Shown: piece by piece, positions 1 through 11,118 of the stretch
Position numbering within the stretch: position 1 is the stretch's first letter
Layout: each line of letters starts with the position of its first letter
Origin: Fistulifera solaris
Taxonomy: Eukaryota
Length of the DNA: 64,000 bases
NCBI GenBank assembly: GCA_030295235.1
Contig: AP026164.1
Location: forward strand, 992,001 to 1,056,000
Direction of reading: 5' to 3'
The notes under the pieces: generated by a model
Databases searched by the model: none
Told to the model about the DNA's origin: nothing
The model's input: only the letters and a program-made list of their open reading frames with translations
Position numbers and translations under genes: made by a program

Positions 1-3000
1 GTACGAGTTTCACGACGGTGTTACAGGAGGCTTAGATCTTCCCAACTATTTTCACTACACTGGACAAGGTGGTGCACCGCACTTGCGAGAATTCACGGAT
101 GAGTCTGGGTTTAAATATACACTCAAAGCCATGCGAAGGCTGGGATGGTCGGAAGAAACGATTGATGCCGTGTTGTCGATCATCGCTGGCCTGTTACACC
201 TTGGTCAAATATCGTTTGAGTCTGTAGAGGTCGATGGAGTAGAAACAGCCAAAGTCGCATCAGAGAAGACACTCGGATATGCAGCTCGTCTCCTCGGCGT
301 GGATATTGACAAACTTCGCGCTGCTTTGACGGAACGCATCATTCTGGCACGTGACCAAGAAATCAAGACGCTTCTGACTCCTGATAAAGCCATGGATGCC
401 CGCGATGCGTTGGCGAAGACCATTTATGGAGCACTCTTCTTATGGGTAGTAGATCAGGTGAACCAGTCGATTTGCTGGGCTGACGACAACGAAGTGCGTT
501 CTTCGTGCGGTGTCCTAGATATCTTCGGTTTCGAATGTTTCGCTGTGAACTCCTTTGAACAGTTGTGTATCAATTACACAAACGAAGCTCTTCAACAGCA
601 GTTCAACCAGTTTATTTTCAAACTAGAGCAAGCAGAATACGAAGCAGAGAATATCGAATGGGCTTTCATCGAATTCCCTGACAACCAAGATTGCCTCGAC
701 ACCATTCAAGCCCCCAAAGTTGGTATCTTATCCATGCTGGACGATGAGTGCAAGTTACCCAAAGGAAGTGATCGCAACTGGGCGAAGCGAATGTATGAGC
801 AATATCTCCCGGAGAAAAATCAAGTTGTCTCGGCAAATACAAGGTTCCACGCTACGAAGGTTCAGCAAGGTAAATCACTCTTTTGCGTCCGACATTTTGC
901 AGGCCTTGTCACATACACTGTGGAGACGAATTTCATGGAAAAGAATAAAGATGAAATTCCGATTACTGCTCAGACTTTGCTGGAAACGGCACCAAGTCAG
1001 CTCATCAAAGATACCTACGAAATCCAAAAGCGAGAAAATATAGGTCGCGCCGATGCTGGCAGTAATGCCCGTGCAGCCAAACCCAAAACAGTTGGCCAGC
1101 AGTTCAAGGAGCAACTGACGGCCTTAATTGAAAGCGTGCAGAAAACGGACCCGCATTACATACGATGTATCAAACCCAACGATGCAGCCAAACCTCTTTT
1201 GATGACTCGGAAGCGTACAACTGAGCAACTTCGTTACGGAGGTGTTTTGGAAGCCGTCAGAGTTGCTCGAGCCGGCTACCCAGTCCGAATGGTCCATTCT
1301 GGTTTCTTCCAACGCTATCGGATGTTGCTTCCGACGACACCGGATGATGTTCTTCCTTGGAGCATGGATGGTCATGTGGCTCAAGATCTGTGCGTGAAAT
1401 TAGTTCAGATTGTGTTGGAAGACGGAAAGAAACACAGGGAGGCTACTAAAGATGGTCCGCTTGATCCCCATGAGCCTGGAATCACTCGATCGGAGAAGAT
1501 CAGGCGTATGCAAAATCAGCCTATACCAATGGCATTTCCAATAACTGATGTGCAACTAGGAAAGACCAAGGTTTTCATGCGCAAGCATCCTCACGATTGC
1601 ATGGAGGCACATCGCGTTTTTCATCAGCACGCTAGTGCTACTGTGATGCAAAGTTGGGCTAGAGGCTTGGCGCAACAACGGAAGTACCTTATCGTTGGAG
1701 ATGCTGCGCTCACCATTCAACGTTGTTACCGTGGATACAAGGGCCGTGAAAGGTATGTGACAAGATGCATTTATTGTGTCAACGGCTTTTCAAGTTTTTG
1801 TATTCTTACCCATGTCTATCTTCAGATGGTGGGACCTACGAAAAGCAGATGCTGGAATGCTGCTCACCAAGGTATTTCGTATGCTTATTTCATGGCGAAA
1901 GTTCAATCGGGTCAGAAAAGGAACTGTTCGCTTGCAAGCTCACATTCGTGGTCGCACCGTTCGTCGTGAGCAAGCTAGCATTAGAGTTCAACGATACTAT
2001 CGCCGTTTCATTGCTTTCAAGCACTACCATATGCTCAAGTCGGCTGTTCTTTCGCTGCAGTGCCGTCTACGCGGAAAGCTTGCCACGCGTGCTCTGAACG
2101 AACTCAAGAAGGAGCAGAAAGACGTCGGCAAGCTCAAGAATATCAACGTGAAATTGAAGGAAGAGATGGCGAGTCTTCGCGCGATGCTTGCTGCCCAGGC
2201 AAAAGAAGGAGCTGCCAACGAGGAACACAAGCAAGCTTTGGCAGAGAAAGAGAAGCAGATAGCGGAACTAGAAAAACGAATAGCTGTCCTAGAGAAAGAG
2301 CTCGCAGAGGCAAAGGCCACGGTCGAGAAGCTGGAGAAGAATCTGACACAATCACAAAAAGAGATTGCTCACGAACGAGAAAGAGTCCAGACTTTGGAGA
2401 AGCGCAAACCGACGCACGACGTATCGGGATCGCCACGTTCGCATCGGAAAACACCGTCGAAAGACACAGAAGACTTCTTCAGGCGTAGACCTTCCGCTGA
2501 TATTCCGACCAACAGCAGCTCAGCAGCCAGCTTCATTAGTCCGGATATTCTGGCGGACCATCTTGCAAGGGTTGCAATTCTTGAGCAAGAGCTGGAGGAG
2601 GAAAAGAAACTTCGACGAGAGGCTGATGGTGAAATCATTAGAATGAGAGCTGCTGCAAATGGGGTGAAGCTTGACTCAGAGATGGTGAACGATTTACTTT
2701 CTCCGCAACTAGACACCAAGTCGGAAGAAAGTTCCATGACAGGAACAGACACTCCTACAAAGCCAAGGTACGTAAAGTTATTCGTTCGCTGTTCGGTAAA
2801 CACAATTGCTGATATCAAATATGTGCGAACTTTGTTGTCTATCTTGTTAGGTACATATTCTTGCTTGCTGCGTTGCTATTGATGACATTTGTTACTGCTA
2901 TTCTGCTGCTTCGTCGGCGCGCGTCTGCTAGAATTCTTCTTCATGTTCTTAAGTCGGTTGAGCGTGTCCAGTACAATCGTGCGGCCTCAATGCTCAACAT

Positions 3001-4387
3001 GTCCATGTTTGATTTTCAATCTGCTGAAATGGACATGTTTGCGAATTCTTTCCATGCATTGCCGTCCGTCGAATGCTATTGAGCACAGAGTTTCAGCCCC
3101 TGCTTTTCTAGACTCGTCATCATTTAGCTTACTAGTTTTCGGGTTTTACTTTGTCTTTTGCTGAAATAAAACTCTTACATCTGTTTTTAAACCCGCAGTC
3201 AGGAAGAACGTTCTGAGGATCTGCAAAGAGCCTTATCGAAATTGGGTATCAAGGATGAAGAGAAGGAAAGGGAACAGAAATCAATGTTACTGTCTCCATT
3301 TAAGGTCGGAGCGGACTTCATTCCCATGATCAAACGTGGTCTTACAAGTATCGGCGAAGATAAAGAAGAAGATGTTGCCGTTGGCTGGAAAGTAAATGCA
3401 ACGACTCGACGAGAACAAGAGGAGGCACTTCGAAATGAGGTACACAGATTTGAAACCAAGTTGAAAAAGTACACGCACATGTTGGAAGAGGGTTTTGAAG
3501 TTGTGATGTGGCAACTAAATAGAGGCGAGGGAGAGGTCGCTGGAGCAGAGGCGTCGGAAGAGTTTGCATTGAAAAATTCCAACGTGACTCTGCAACTTCA
3601 CCGCCGCGGTGATATGTTTGTTCAATCTGTATTGACGTTCGTCCTCAAAGGTGGCTATCTTAGTAAAGCTATTGGTCGAAATCGAAATGTTGACAAAACC
3701 GCATTGGAGCCTCTTTCCATTCATGACATTCTTGAAGTACAGGCTGGTTGCCAGGGTTATGATCACAACGATTTGCCTACGGCGGCCTCTTCATCAAAAA
3801 CCAAGACCAAGAAGAAACCTGACAAAAAGACCGAAAACGTTCAAGGCCACTTATTTCTCACCATAAAGGCGACTCCAACTCCAGTAGCACACTCTCGGTC
3901 GTATATTTTCCGTTTTAAATCGCGCTCGGCGAGAAATGACGTCCTTTACGGACTCCGAAGTGTGCTCTCGGATATGCAAATCAAAGAAGGCGTAAGTATA
4001 TCCGGCCTTCAAACAGCAAGTGGCGATGATAGAGAGGTTGTCGACGAAGAGGAGATTATGGTTCCGCTTGAAGCGGTCCATCAGGCCATTAATCGGGAGC
4101 GCGAAAGCTACGACAAAATTCTGCTTCTCCTACAGCAAGGTACGGACGACTTGAAGCAGAAAGAAGATGAATTACAAACGTTGCACGGCAAGCTCGATCA
4201 TGCCTTGCAGCAATCTAAGGAAAAGGATCGTATCCAAGCAAACGATTCAAAGCTTATCATGCAACTCAGCAAGAAGCTTGAAACACTTCTGATGGACAAT
4301 GAAGACCTTCGAGACAAGAACGATAGGCTTAACACTCGATTGGTTTCTGTAGAAGCTGAACTCATGAATCTTCCTGGTAGACGTTAA
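1..4387 (+). CDS. Myosin heavy chain (5'-truncated by the window): motor domain C-half, IQ motifs, coiled coil, C-terminal tail with possible PH-like domain and coiled coil
   Basis: Motor motifs LDIFGFE, NSFEQLCINYTNE, HYIRCIKPN, QLRYGGVLE, GKTKVF; IQ-like IQRCYRGYKGR, LQAHIRGRTVR, VQRYYRRF, LQCRLRGKLA. GT-AG introns 1753-1825 and 2768-3198 join ORFs 83-1969, 1776-2882 and 3242-4387 in frame. Confidence 0.95.
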
Positions 4388-4423
4388 ATGAACTTAATAC
4401 AGTACTTCATTAAGGAAACATTC

Positions 4424-5957
4424 TTAGCTACGAAACCTAGTAGGATCGAAAGCAAATGTGGATTTTCCGTCGACAAATGCATTTTTTCTCCTCATTGGAC
4501 CCGCTGCAAACCCGGCAATAGAATCACCAAAAGTATTCACTCCTTCCGCGTCTTCGTCTTCCTCGGGTAAGCAGCAAGCGCAGCCTTGCTTTACCGCGGC
4601 TTTAAGAGTCCAATGCTCGGCTGGAAGTACTGTATCGAACAATGTTTTATTTTCGATTAATACCAACTTGTGACGAAAAACAGCATTCTCAATGTCGGCG
4701 TTATTGAAATGAGGAACCGACATTCTGGCGTTTACGCATGATATAGCAAGCTCCATTTGTAACTCCGTCACATCCCCACGAGAGCGACTTCCGGTGATGT
4801 ATTGAAGTAGTGACCGAAGGGCCCAATAGGACGAAGTACGTGGACCAGAGGTAGAAATCGGTTGAGCGTAGAGGAAATCCAATTTGCAGCAATATGGAAG
4901 GAAAGCCTTGTCTTCTTTTTTCTGGACCAAATAAGAATCGACGGCTGTCAACCAAGTCTCGACAACATCAGCTTGTGATAAAGGTAGCCTGGCTAACGCT
5001 TCCCCGAAAGCAGGTTCCATGACATTTGTTGAGGATGAAATCGACAATAAAGGCGTGGTAGAAACAGTTGGATCGGCAAAGATCAATGCTTCTTGAGTAT
5101 TAGTCGGAACGGCGGAAGGATTCTTGGCCGACTTGCGAAGTGTACCGGCGTTCACTACAGTTTTCAAGCAACCAGTGTAGCAGAATACGTGCCGATCATC
5201 GGGGAAAACCTTTTGAAGCAATGGTAGTAGCGACGAAACAATACTCTGTCCAGGAAGAGTAAAGAGCAAGGTCGGTTTCTTACACCGAAGGGCTTCAACA
5301 CGACAGAGAGCGTATACAAGGCGTTCCAGACGTTGTCGGGTGTAGACACGTTGCTGGATTAATGCAGCGAGACACACCATCCAATATGGTTGTTGAATCA
5401 CATGTACATCATTTTTATAAACGCTTTCCACCAGGTCAACGATTAAATGCGATCCTTCATGCGCACTCGCGTCGCTTACAAAGCAGAAAGTCGTCGTGGA
5501 TATTTTGGTCTCCATTTTATCTGCAACTTGTGTCGCGACCGCTGACAGAGGTAAACGATGCACCCTGTTTCCTTGCAAGAACCAAACAAAATGTTCTTTT
5601 GAAAACTCTTTTGGGCCCATTCTGATGAACTTTCTTCGGATCCTATACGAATCACTTGAATGTCCTGATAGCTCCCCGAAACCAGCTCTGAGCAAAATTT
5701 GTCAATGTGTTCGGAATCATCCCAGGACTTCGTTATTAACCCAAGTTTGTCCGCTAAAAGAGCGCTCGAGCAAGCGCTTGTTTCCATCGATACTGATACT
5801 CAGCAGCCCGTTTCGTTTGTAACTGTTTCGGTGAAAGAAGAAAACGGCGGCCTACCTCATCGCTCTGTAAAGCTACGAGGGTAAGGGCCATAAGACTCGC
5901 TGCGCCTGCTGAACCCAAAAGAACCGGAGATATGGGACTACCACTTGACAGAACCAT
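4424..5957 (-). CDS. Hypothetical protein; 5' part spread over shifted frames, start uncertain
   Basis: 423-aa ORF 4424-5695 with protein-like composition, plus overlapping upstream ORFs 5476-5787 and 5754-5960 that suggest frameshifts; no family recognised. Confidence 0.55.
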
Positions 5958-9350: not shown

Positions 9351-11118
9351 TTATTCGGCTTTTTTGCCTTGACGACAAACCCACTCAGTTACAAGTTTCG
9401 TCCCGTAGCCAGTTGCCATACTTTCTTTATCCGACCAAACAGGACCAGCAATATCAATGTGCGCGAAAGGCTTCTTTTTGCTGACAAATTTCTGCAAAAA
9501 CAAAGCTGCGGTGATGGCGCCTCCATATCTTCCTCCGATGTTTTTCATGTCCGCAAATTTACTTTCCAGTTGGTCATTGTATTCCATTGCCATTGGCATT
9601 CGCCAAGACTTGTCTCCAGTGACTTTGGAGATGTTAGCGATTTCCTCGGCAAGACCATCGTTCAAAGTCCAAACACCCGCAAGGCTCTTCCCGAGGGAGA
9701 TCATACATGCTCCGGTCAGTGTGGACAATTCAATGATTTTCTCGCAGCCAATTTCTTTGTCTGCATATACGAGGGCATCCGCCAAAGTAAGTCGTCCTTC
9801 GGCGTCCGTGTTCATGACTTCAATGGTTTTACCATTAGAAGCGGTAAGAATGTCGCTCGGAACAGCAGCTCTGTCACTAATCATGTTTTCACAAGCTGCG
9901 ACACAAAAGTGAGCTTCGACTCCTTCTGGCTGTAGAGCCCCAATCGCACGCGCGGCACCCAGGACAGCAGCAGCACCTCCACAATCAAATTTCATCATTT
10001 CCATCATTGCCGTTTTGATATTGTAGCCGCCCGTATCGAACAAAAGACCTTTTCCAATGACACCAACCTTGCTGTTAATCTCTCCCTTCGGCTTGTAAGT
10101 AATATGGATAAACTGTGGTTCAGTTTCCGATCCTCTCGCTACACCCAAGAAACTGCCCATGCCTCTTGCTTCACATTCATCCTTATTCAATATCTTGCAC
10201 TGCAACGAACCACCACTTTCTTCGACAATGCGACGGGCTGTGTCAGCCAAGGAAAGGGAGTTCAAAACATTGTGCGGGGCGTTTACGATATCCTTGCATA
10301 GGAAAATTCCACGCGCAATCGAACGTCCTTGCTCAATCGCTGCAGCATCAGCAACCGCGTCACTGCCATCTGTCGTCAAAGTGATGGATTTCAGAGCTTC
10401 AGCGACCTTTTTGACGTTTGATCCCGACTTGTAGCGATTATCAGCATAGAGAGCCTGATAGAATGCCGTTGAAAAGTCTCGAACAGTTGTGGCGTTGCCA
10501 GTGACTGCTTCCGGAAGAATAACACGACACGAAGCCACTTTCGGTTCTGCCTTGCATTTGGCAGCGACTGCGTTTCCTAAAGCCATGCCCGCATTTGTCC
10601 AGTCTTTGTCATCTTTCTCGGGTCCCAAACCCATCAGAACAATTCGTTTTGCCGTTGAAGATGCAACACGTAATGTAGGAGTAGTACCTCCTACCGTCGC
10701 TCCGTTTTTGAATGATTTGGCATGATCTTTCAGCATGTCCGTGAGAGCTCCACTCAAGTCGTCATCCAAAGATTTTGCAGACCCCGTAAGAGCGATCGGC
10801 TCTGGTTCCTTATTGGTTGCCTCTTCTTCTTCTTCGTCGTCGTCGTCTTCTTCCTCCTTCTCGGCTTTGGCAGGAGGAGAAACACCAATCACTAACAAGT
10901 CGACGGTTCCACTAGCACTTGCCGAAGACATTGTCACATCCAACACATCATTCCATTCCATAGCAGCGTTCGGTTTATCAAAAGACCAGGTGGGAAAAGT
11001 AGTTGAAGCCATGTTACGAGCGGTAAAACTCTGGCTAAAAGGACTTCGTCGTGGAACGGAAAAAAGCCGAGATAGGCGCAATCAAGACGCTCGCAGTGAA
11101 CGCTGTTCGAAATTTCAT
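9351..11118 (-). CDS. Leucyl aminopeptidase (peptidase M17), plastid-type presequence
   Basis: GKGLLFDTGG, MKFDCGGAA, NTDAEGRLTLAD, TLTGA, HIDIAG motifs. Upstream ATG at 11118 gives MKFRTAFTASVLIAPISA|F, which joins the long ORF after a 1-nt shift in the A run at about 11060-11065. Confidence 0.95.

Follow-up and report, generated by a model that had tools for sequence, protein, structure and literature searches.

The left end of the window, by which we mean the whole 64,000-nt stretch of Fistulifera solaris DNA analysed here (contig AP026164.1, positions 992,001 to 1,056,000), carries a myosin gene on the + strand. Its 3′ two thirds are present and its start lies left of the window. A reading made from the letters alone had proposed that a long intron of this gene hides an alternative terminal exon, and that the choice between two 3′ splice sites switches the product between a soluble-tail and a membrane-anchored myosin. 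Comparison with other diatoms indicates that the predicted proximal acceptor, hydrophobic helix, basic cluster and stop codon of this candidate exon are deeply conserved. We consider it probable that a membrane-anchored isoform does arise by alternative 3′ splice choice.

The segment at 2-1752 encodes the C-terminal two thirds of the myosin motor domain and the first IQ motif. According to Pfam, it matches Myosin_head (PF00063, E 1.1e-127) over profile positions 211-655 of 679, the N-terminal third lying beyond the window. IQ motifs (PF00612), the light-chain binding motifs of the myosin superfamily, were detected at the end of exon 1 (E 9.6e-07) and in exon 2. Intron 1 (1753-1825; 73 nt, GT..AG) is followed by exon 2 (1826-2767), which encodes IQ motifs and a coiled coil and was delimited by translation, Pfam IQ and coiled-coil families, and RNA joints. 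Exon 2 is common to both predicted isoforms and ends in phase 2, with the AG of an arginine codon, as …ACAAAGCCAAG|GTACGT. The long intron (2768-3198; 431 nt, GT..AG) separates it from exon 3 (3199-4387), which encodes the canonical tail, comprising a helix, a PH-like domain and a coiled coil, as judged from orthologues, AlphaFold and Foldseek. The stop codon, TAA, is at 4385-4387 and polyadenylation occurs at ∼4418, 31 nt past it. A minus-strand open frame of 425 codons (4424-5701) adjoins this mRNA end, so that the two convergent genes nearly touch.

To define the transcript of this gene, we aligned assembled contigs from four runs of one study (X1-X4), none of them catalogued as RNA, to positions 1400-4700. 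X2, X3 and X4 behave as RNA. Intron 1 is removed in one contig each of X2 and X3 and in two of X4, and the 2767^3199 joint, with GT..AG borders, occurs in one contig of each of these three runs. Poly(A) loose ends were found at 4418 in X2 and X3, and one X4 contig carries six A there. The contigs of X1 cover both introns unspliced and are thus DNA-like. These data prove the canonical model, in which the distal acceptor is used, for this organism. They also establish that the 431-nt intron is real; its description as far longer than the other introns (65-180 nt) could be checked on one 73-nt intron only. The contigs differ from the window at many single exon bases between 1500 and 4150, for example at 25/953 in the X1 contig over 3302-4254. 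These differences are common to several runs and suggest that another allele or strain, well diverged from the window, is represented.

An AlphaFold model of the exon-3 tail was generated from a 20-sequence alignment (pLDDT 68, pTM 0.45). The model contains a long helix, a beta sandwich with strands between residues 99 and 239 that is capped by a helix at 242-262, and a coiled coil at 290-389. The PH-like domain would accordingly span residues ∼99-262 of exon 3. In Foldseek searches, the sandwich matched the PH domains of PLC-beta/gamma/delta, TgAPH and PfAPH with E from 8.5e-4 and with a TM-score (target) of 0.5-0.68 against isolated PH domains. Pfam gave no PH hit in exon 3, only weak coiled-coil-type hits. 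As modelled, the likeness of the canonical tail to PH domains is one of fold only. The canonical isoform likely ends in a peripheral membrane- or cargo-binding module.

A candidate terminal exon in the long intron

Within the long intron, a second acceptor, TTGTTAG, lies at 2844-2850. Together with the donor GTACGT and an intervening pyrimidine tract, it delimits a putative short intron of 83 nt (2768-2850), whose layout recurs in the 11 other lineages described below. When 2767 is joined to 2851, the interrupted codon becomes AG|G (arginine) and the frame is kept: YIFLLAALLLMTFVTAILLLRRRASARILLHVLKSVERVQYNRAASMLNMSMFDFQSAEMDMFANSFHALPSVECY. The coding part of the alternative exon (2851-3082) comprises the last base of the arginine codon, 76 codons and the stop TGA at 3080-3082, and reads R-YIFLLAALLLMTFVTAILLL-RRRASAR…ECY. 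The 20 uncharged residues YIFLLAALLLMTFVTAILLL (2852-2911) are predicted to form a transmembrane helix, with a mean Kyte-Doolittle (KD) hydropathy of 2.90 over 19 residues. They are followed by a basic juxtamembrane cluster, RRRASAR (2912-2932), which gives a net charge of +4 in the 12 residues after the helix. The borders of the putative 83-nt intron and the in-frame hydrophobic stretch, arginine triplet and stop proposed earlier were thus borne out by the window sequence and its translation. Past this stop, the remainder of the long intron (3083-3198) would serve the alternative isoform as 3′ untranslated region (UTR); an AATAAA is present at 3165-3170, and the stretch ends in the distal acceptor, CCCGCAG, at 3198. 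No Pfam family was detected in the alternative exon peptide, and an Rfam scan of 2600-3350 at E<=1 returned no match, that is, no known intron-hosted RNA. Directly after the proximal AG, GTACAT (AG|GTACAT, 2849-2856) resembles the donor GTACGT. Recursive splice sites have such an arrangement, which the other lineages do not conserve.

To investigate the conservation of the candidate exon, we collected orthologues of exon 3. Sixty diatom proteins of 693-2000 residues, most of them 1548-1730 residues long and with a myosin head, matched exon 3 at 42-65% identity. The named orthologues are from Amphiprora, Amphora, Seminavis, Nitzschia, Cylindrotheca, Fragilariopsis, Asterionellopsis and Synedropsis. 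A strongly hydrophobic segment (KD 2.87) was present in one of the 60, the Cylindrotheca fusiformis genome model P0023, where it stands directly behind the residue matching the end of exon 2: …KKAEMR FFVVVFFALAFNLVIFAFVAQRQ…. A scan of metagenome contigs with exon 3 yielded 49 loci, 35 of which cover exon 2 and exon 3. At 21 of the 35, exon 2 runs in frame into exon 3 with no hydrophobic segment, and 18 of those 21 resemble spliced transcripts or genes that lack an intron there. The remaining three, L035, L036 and L044, are intronless between exons 2 and 3 but have introns elsewhere in the tail. The 14 loci with an intron at the site represent 11 distinct lineages: L003, L010, L011 (=L013, L014), L012, L017, L024, L030, L033, L038, L040 (=L041) and L047.

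The hidden design was found in 11/11 of these intron-bearing lineages (12/12 with the window), so that the conservation of the intronic open reading frame (ORF) in related diatoms, which the sequence-only reading had named as a check, was confirmed. In all 11, the donor is (A/C/T)AG|GT(A/G)(C/T/A)GT in phase 2, and the first intron, of 97-227 nt, contains a pyrimidine-rich stretch before an AG that supplies the first two bases of an R codon. The anatomy of the proximal acceptor, namely a pyrimidine tract, an AG and a kept frame, is thereby common to the window and the 11 other lineages. Each of the 12 encodes 16-23 uncharged residues with a KD of 2.39-3.16, a net charge of +3 or +4 in the 12 residues after the helix, and a stop. 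The basic cluster takes forms such as RRRALVR, RRRAALR, RRSSG..K, RRRSS, RRV..PR and RHRAAAR, with the alignment consensus RRRASxR. The ORF comprises 35-98 residues in the 11 others, and the stop lies 12-77 residues past the uncharged stretch (56 in the window), which forms the one predicted helix. The Logan ORF P0075 also carries the hidden exon (…IVMIFVALAVIICFFALTLRRRATQ…). The exon-3 tails of these lineages are 41-68% identical to that of the window. Their nearest named relatives are Amphora, Seminavis, Cylindrotheca and Fragilariopsis, and the tail of five lineages is only ∼50% identical to that of any named pennate.

Two side observations concern the gene structure at this site. Two genomic lineages, L035 and L036/L037/L044, have neither an intron at the site nor a hidden exon; intron and exon appear to be coupled. 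Further, a motif at the start of exon 3, (G)(V/E)(P/T)PE(V/I)(T/A)G, is conserved in several lineages (L010:~3960-4000, L047:~3690, L003:~790, L024:~2400) and is missing in the window's exon 3. By this motif, the distal acceptor of the window seems to be further downstream than in its relatives.

The encoded peptide bears signs of selection. Beyond the helix, L011 and L017 share NE(S/T)G.EI.L..LKE.AS, and L012 and L003 share RRSSG.V..RLL.LL. An asparagine in mid-helix recurs in L012, L003, L024 and P0023. Two free ORF calls from close relatives of the window's organism, P0064 (67% identity) and P0065 (87-88%), were found with phmmer among 1.84 billion representative proteins; both keep the frame and the position of the stop. 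P0065 differs by in-frame indels only. Variation is concentrated in the end piece, with hardly any change in the helix plus RRRASA. The ratio of nonsynonymous to synonymous divergence (dN/dS) of the hidden exon was 0.348/0.707 for L030/L040 and 0.433/1.327 for L012/L003; that of exon 2 was 0.111/1.001 for L030/L040. Synonymous sites were saturated in most pairs, and the dS of exon 2 was saturated in 4/6 pairs. Nucleotide identities of the first intron and of the sequence past the stop derive from forced global alignments; they are uninformative and were left out of the comparison. The retention of reading frame, helix and charge cluster at one spot over a saturating distance points to selection rather than to an unconstrained intron.

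Transcripts, chance expectation and rival explanations

We searched for a product of the short isoform at the protein level. In a phmmer search of the same 1.84 billion representatives with the intronic ORF, the only matches were the two short ORF calls, and no myosin ending in the ORF was found; as only representatives were searched, a short isoform may be hidden in clusters of the long one. Among the metagenome contigs, 0/35 had only the first intron removed, the exon-3 query being blind to transcripts that end inside the intron. The first short intron can be read in frame without a stop in L017 (3410-3607; Seminavis-like) and in the lineage of P0075; P0076 was also noted. A myosin with the helix would then also arise if such an intron were simply retained, and gene calling yields read-through proteins of ∼1200 residues from it. 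More generally, annotation of this site calls for caution, since gene prediction runs straight through the exon, lists it separately as a 'hypothetical protein' or makes it part of the tail.

Several results weigh against a membrane-anchored isoform. The 2767^2851 joint was seen in 0/4 runs, and the contigs of X2-X4 give no cover over 2843-3175. The junction check proposed earlier thus came out in favour of 2767^3199 (3/4 runs) and not of the proximal joint; since contigs drop rare variants and minor forms, this neither refutes the proximal joint nor proves its absence. The hidden exon was present in 0/18 of the spliced-transcript-like loci, and 0/59 orthologue proteins besides P0023 have a segment with KD above 2.1. 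Two further protein searches, one with residues 250-350 of P0023 among proteins of 408-1301 residues (11 matches) and one with a profile of 16 hidden-exon peptides among proteins of 173-2000 residues (three matches), returned no spliced short isoform. Apart from P0023 and P0075, the matches of both were ORF calls that extend across the first intron; as these searches rely on word sharing and failed to recover partial orthologues already known, the negative is a weak one. The divergence data show that the predicted exon is under constraint that is weaker than that on exon 2 (dN/dS ∼0.3-0.5 vs 0.11). Finally, an anchor with its N-terminus in and its C-terminus out would place the basic cluster beyond the membrane, which goes against the positive-inside rule.

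Part of the chance expectation belongs with these points. We defined a strict feature as an AG followed within six residues by a 19-residue window of KD>=2.3, with >=2 R/K among the 10 residues after that window and an ORF length of >=30 codons. A lax version had KD>=1.6 and an ORF of >=25 codons and required no basic residues. These thresholds were chosen after the loci had been seen. The window's intron, which is 38% T and has a second forward frame (2886-3164) that is also open and hydrophobic, produced the strict feature in 5/500 dinucleotide shuffles and the lax one in 39% of 300 shuffles. Taken alone, the window exceeds chance under the strict criteria only and is weak evidence; the weight of the finding lies in the comparison with other diatoms. 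The introns of the other lineages gave the strict feature in 0-9 of 500 shuffles (mean 0.5%) and the laxest version in 10-59% of 300 shuffles per intron. Multiplied by hand over the 11 other lineages, with independence assumed, the lax rates give ∼5e-8; the lineages are related by descent, so such products are not true probabilities. In the window as a whole, taken on both strands (128 kb), the strict feature occurs at four places, the hidden exon among them. The other three, at 10779-10900 (+), 47964 (-) and 35339 (-), may be parts of ordinary membrane-protein genes; the one at 10779 reads …LWFLIGCLFFFFVVVVFFLLLGFGRRRNTNH.

The rival explanation that fares best, which we nevertheless regard as unlikely, is that the proximal acceptor is a conserved decoy or poison site that lowers the output of canonical myosin and whose peptide has no function. 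In a variant confined to the window, AG|GTACAT at 2849-2856 would be a recursive splice site that is re-spliced to 3198. The canonical junction is the only one seen in the RNA contigs, the hidden exon evolves faster than exon 2, and GTACAT resembles the donor, all of which would fit such a role. By contrast, a decoy needs an AG and a stop, and not 16-23 uncharged residues followed by a net charge of +3 or +4 in 12/12 lineages; the protein-level similarity past the helix would also go unexplained. The recursive variant is opposed by the other lineages, which have not kept a donor-like GT behind the AG: the site reads AG|A in L024, L030, L038, L040 and L047 and AG|GCC in L033.

We think it improbable, to a greater degree than for a decoy, that the ORF is translated apart from the myosin, as a small membrane protein from its own intronic transcript or from an intron-retaining RNA. 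Gene callers do list the free-standing ORFs P0064 and P0065, and the open first intron of L017 and P0075 would also let an intron-retaining RNA be translated as far as the helix. However, in 10/12 lineages the frame of exon 2 is closed within the first intron, there is no in-frame intronic ATG upstream of the helix in 9/12, and in L024 the preceding stop is one codon away. Moreover, the ORF starts exactly at an AG that matches the phase-2 donor in 12/12 lineages, which is what a splice acceptor predicts.

Still less credit is due to a cassette exon, by which the helix would be spliced into a full-length myosin ahead of the PH-like tail. The Cylindrotheca model P0023 does read from the helix into the exon-3 tail, but this model was made automatically and, in addition, begins within intron 1, and the helix is found in none of the 59 other orthologue proteins. 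A stop ends the ORF in 12/12 lineages. Scored with a matrix built from the 12 canonical donors, in-phase GT sites in the 12 ORFs reached <=2.7, compared with 11.0-14.8 for those donors, and the ORF of L010 lacks any in-phase GT site. The absence of a plausible donor argues for a terminal exon and not a cassette. Least probable of all is a functionless chance product of a T-rich intron: the base composition, second open frame and lax shuffle rate given above would allow it, and first-intron read-through in other species is also hydrophobic, but the full feature occurs in 12/12 lineages against a mean of 0.5% of shuffles and its start is invariably the first exon-like AG, which lies 83-227 nt downstream of the donor.

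The predicted membrane anchor and known systems

Taken together, the conserved hidden exon and the soluble PH-like/coiled-coil tail make a switch between a soluble-tail and a membrane-anchored myosin the best reading of the locus. This switch, as first proposed, has gained comparative support from 11/11 lineages and from the soluble canonical tail; it has no RNA support so far. One donor (2767/2768) would serve two competing acceptors, the distal one being dominant in the RNA so far. Use of the distal acceptor at 3198, as seen in RNA, removes 431 nt and gives a product with motor, IQ motifs, coiled coil, PH-like domain and C-terminal coiled coil. Use of the proximal acceptor at 2850 would remove 83 nt and lead into a short exon that encodes one transmembrane helix, the basic cluster and an end piece of 49 residues. 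The short product would keep the motor, the neck and the dimerizing coiled coil, with the PH-like tail swapped for a C-terminal membrane anchor. In the predicted topology, the motor would be in the cytosol and the short end piece beyond the membrane. The short mRNA might end inside the intron with its own poly(A), or run on through exon 3 as 3′ UTR.

Use of the proximal site and insertion into a membrane are inferred. In other eukaryotes, a very hydrophobic helix, such as this one, favours the endoplasmic reticulum route, whereas basic residues clustered immediately after the helix typify anchors of organelle outer membranes. Tail-anchored proteins are usually allowed ∼30-40 residues after the helix, fewer than the 56 in the window. 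If the switch operates, candidate membranes would be an organelle outer membrane, the plasma membrane and the silica deposition vesicle, and actin force would be applied to the membrane without an adaptor. Such a link would bear on valve morphogenesis, on the placement of organelles and, in raphids, on the membrane connector assumed in the gliding model. The proposed connection with gliding itself was weakened: the gene and the exon occur in lineages whose tail is only ∼50% identical to that of any named pennate, and orthologues are found in the araphids Asterionellopsis and Synedropsis. A gliding-specific role is unlikely, as the predicted exon occurs in lineages far from raphid pennates. The hidden exon is nevertheless a concrete, conserved and easily tested candidate for a membrane link of diatom actomyosin.

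The evidence tilts somewhat towards a broader claim: that the switch has been kept since before the major diatom lineages split, that it would turn a peripheral PH-domain motor into an integral, anchored myosin, the first with a single-pass membrane anchor, and that the basic cluster would be its membrane address. Myosins are known to reach membranes through adaptors, through lipid-binding domains or, in the chitin-synthase classes, through a fused multi-pass enzyme. Myosin XIX of animals and their relatives is an organelle-membrane myosin that acts through a short basic and hydrophobic C-terminal segment; it is described as binding the mitochondrial outer membrane peripherally and through Miro, not by a spanning helix. 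The predicted diatom isoform would resemble it in its direct link to a membrane by a basic and hydrophobic C-terminal segment, and differs in its spanning helix and in belonging to another class and lineage.

In PMC11420354, which states that no diatom myosin had been characterized functionally before that study, diatom myosins are assigned to classes 29, 47, 51, 52 and 53 plus orphans, with CaMyo51A-D being raphid-specific. The gene described here is from the same group of organisms and, like these classes, combines a motor, IQ motifs and a coiled-coil tail. Class-51 tails, as given there, are 276-417 residues long, have no further domain and are raphid-only, whereas the window's gene has ∼700 residues after the motor, a PH-like domain and a distribution that is not restricted to raphids; by these features it does not fit class 51. 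In the passages of PMC11420354, PMC3942036 and PMC5583752 considered here, diatom myosins are described with neither a splice variant nor a membrane helix. Likewise, no single-pass or tail-anchored myosin and no diatom myosin splice variant was found among the papers listed by literature searches.

The closest parallels in design are SLMAP and Miro1, coiled-coil or adaptor proteins in which 3′ alternative exons determine whether, or at which site, a C-terminal helix provides an anchor, according to two reports (PMC11461071, PMC5800816). The likeness is that the anchor is set by a 3′ alternative exon, and it is one of design, not of sequence; the difference is that these proteins are adaptors and not motors. 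Among myosins, the only transmembrane forms described in the surveys, as far as the portions covered go (PMC3942036, PMC5583752), are the chitin-synthase classes: class 17 of fungi and class 36 of molluscs, rotifers and annelids. As in the predicted diatom isoform, motor and membrane part are in one polypeptide. The chitin-synthase myosins, however, have many helices and a chitin-synthase domain and are constitutive, whereas the diatom gene would add a single C-terminal helix by splicing, without an enzyme domain; the alternative exon has one hydrophobic segment and no Pfam match, and so neither of the marks of classes 17 and 36. If the switch is real, a single-helix, splice-switched membrane motor would be a new coupling of actin force to a membrane, beside the fused multi-helix enzyme of the chitin-synthase myosins.

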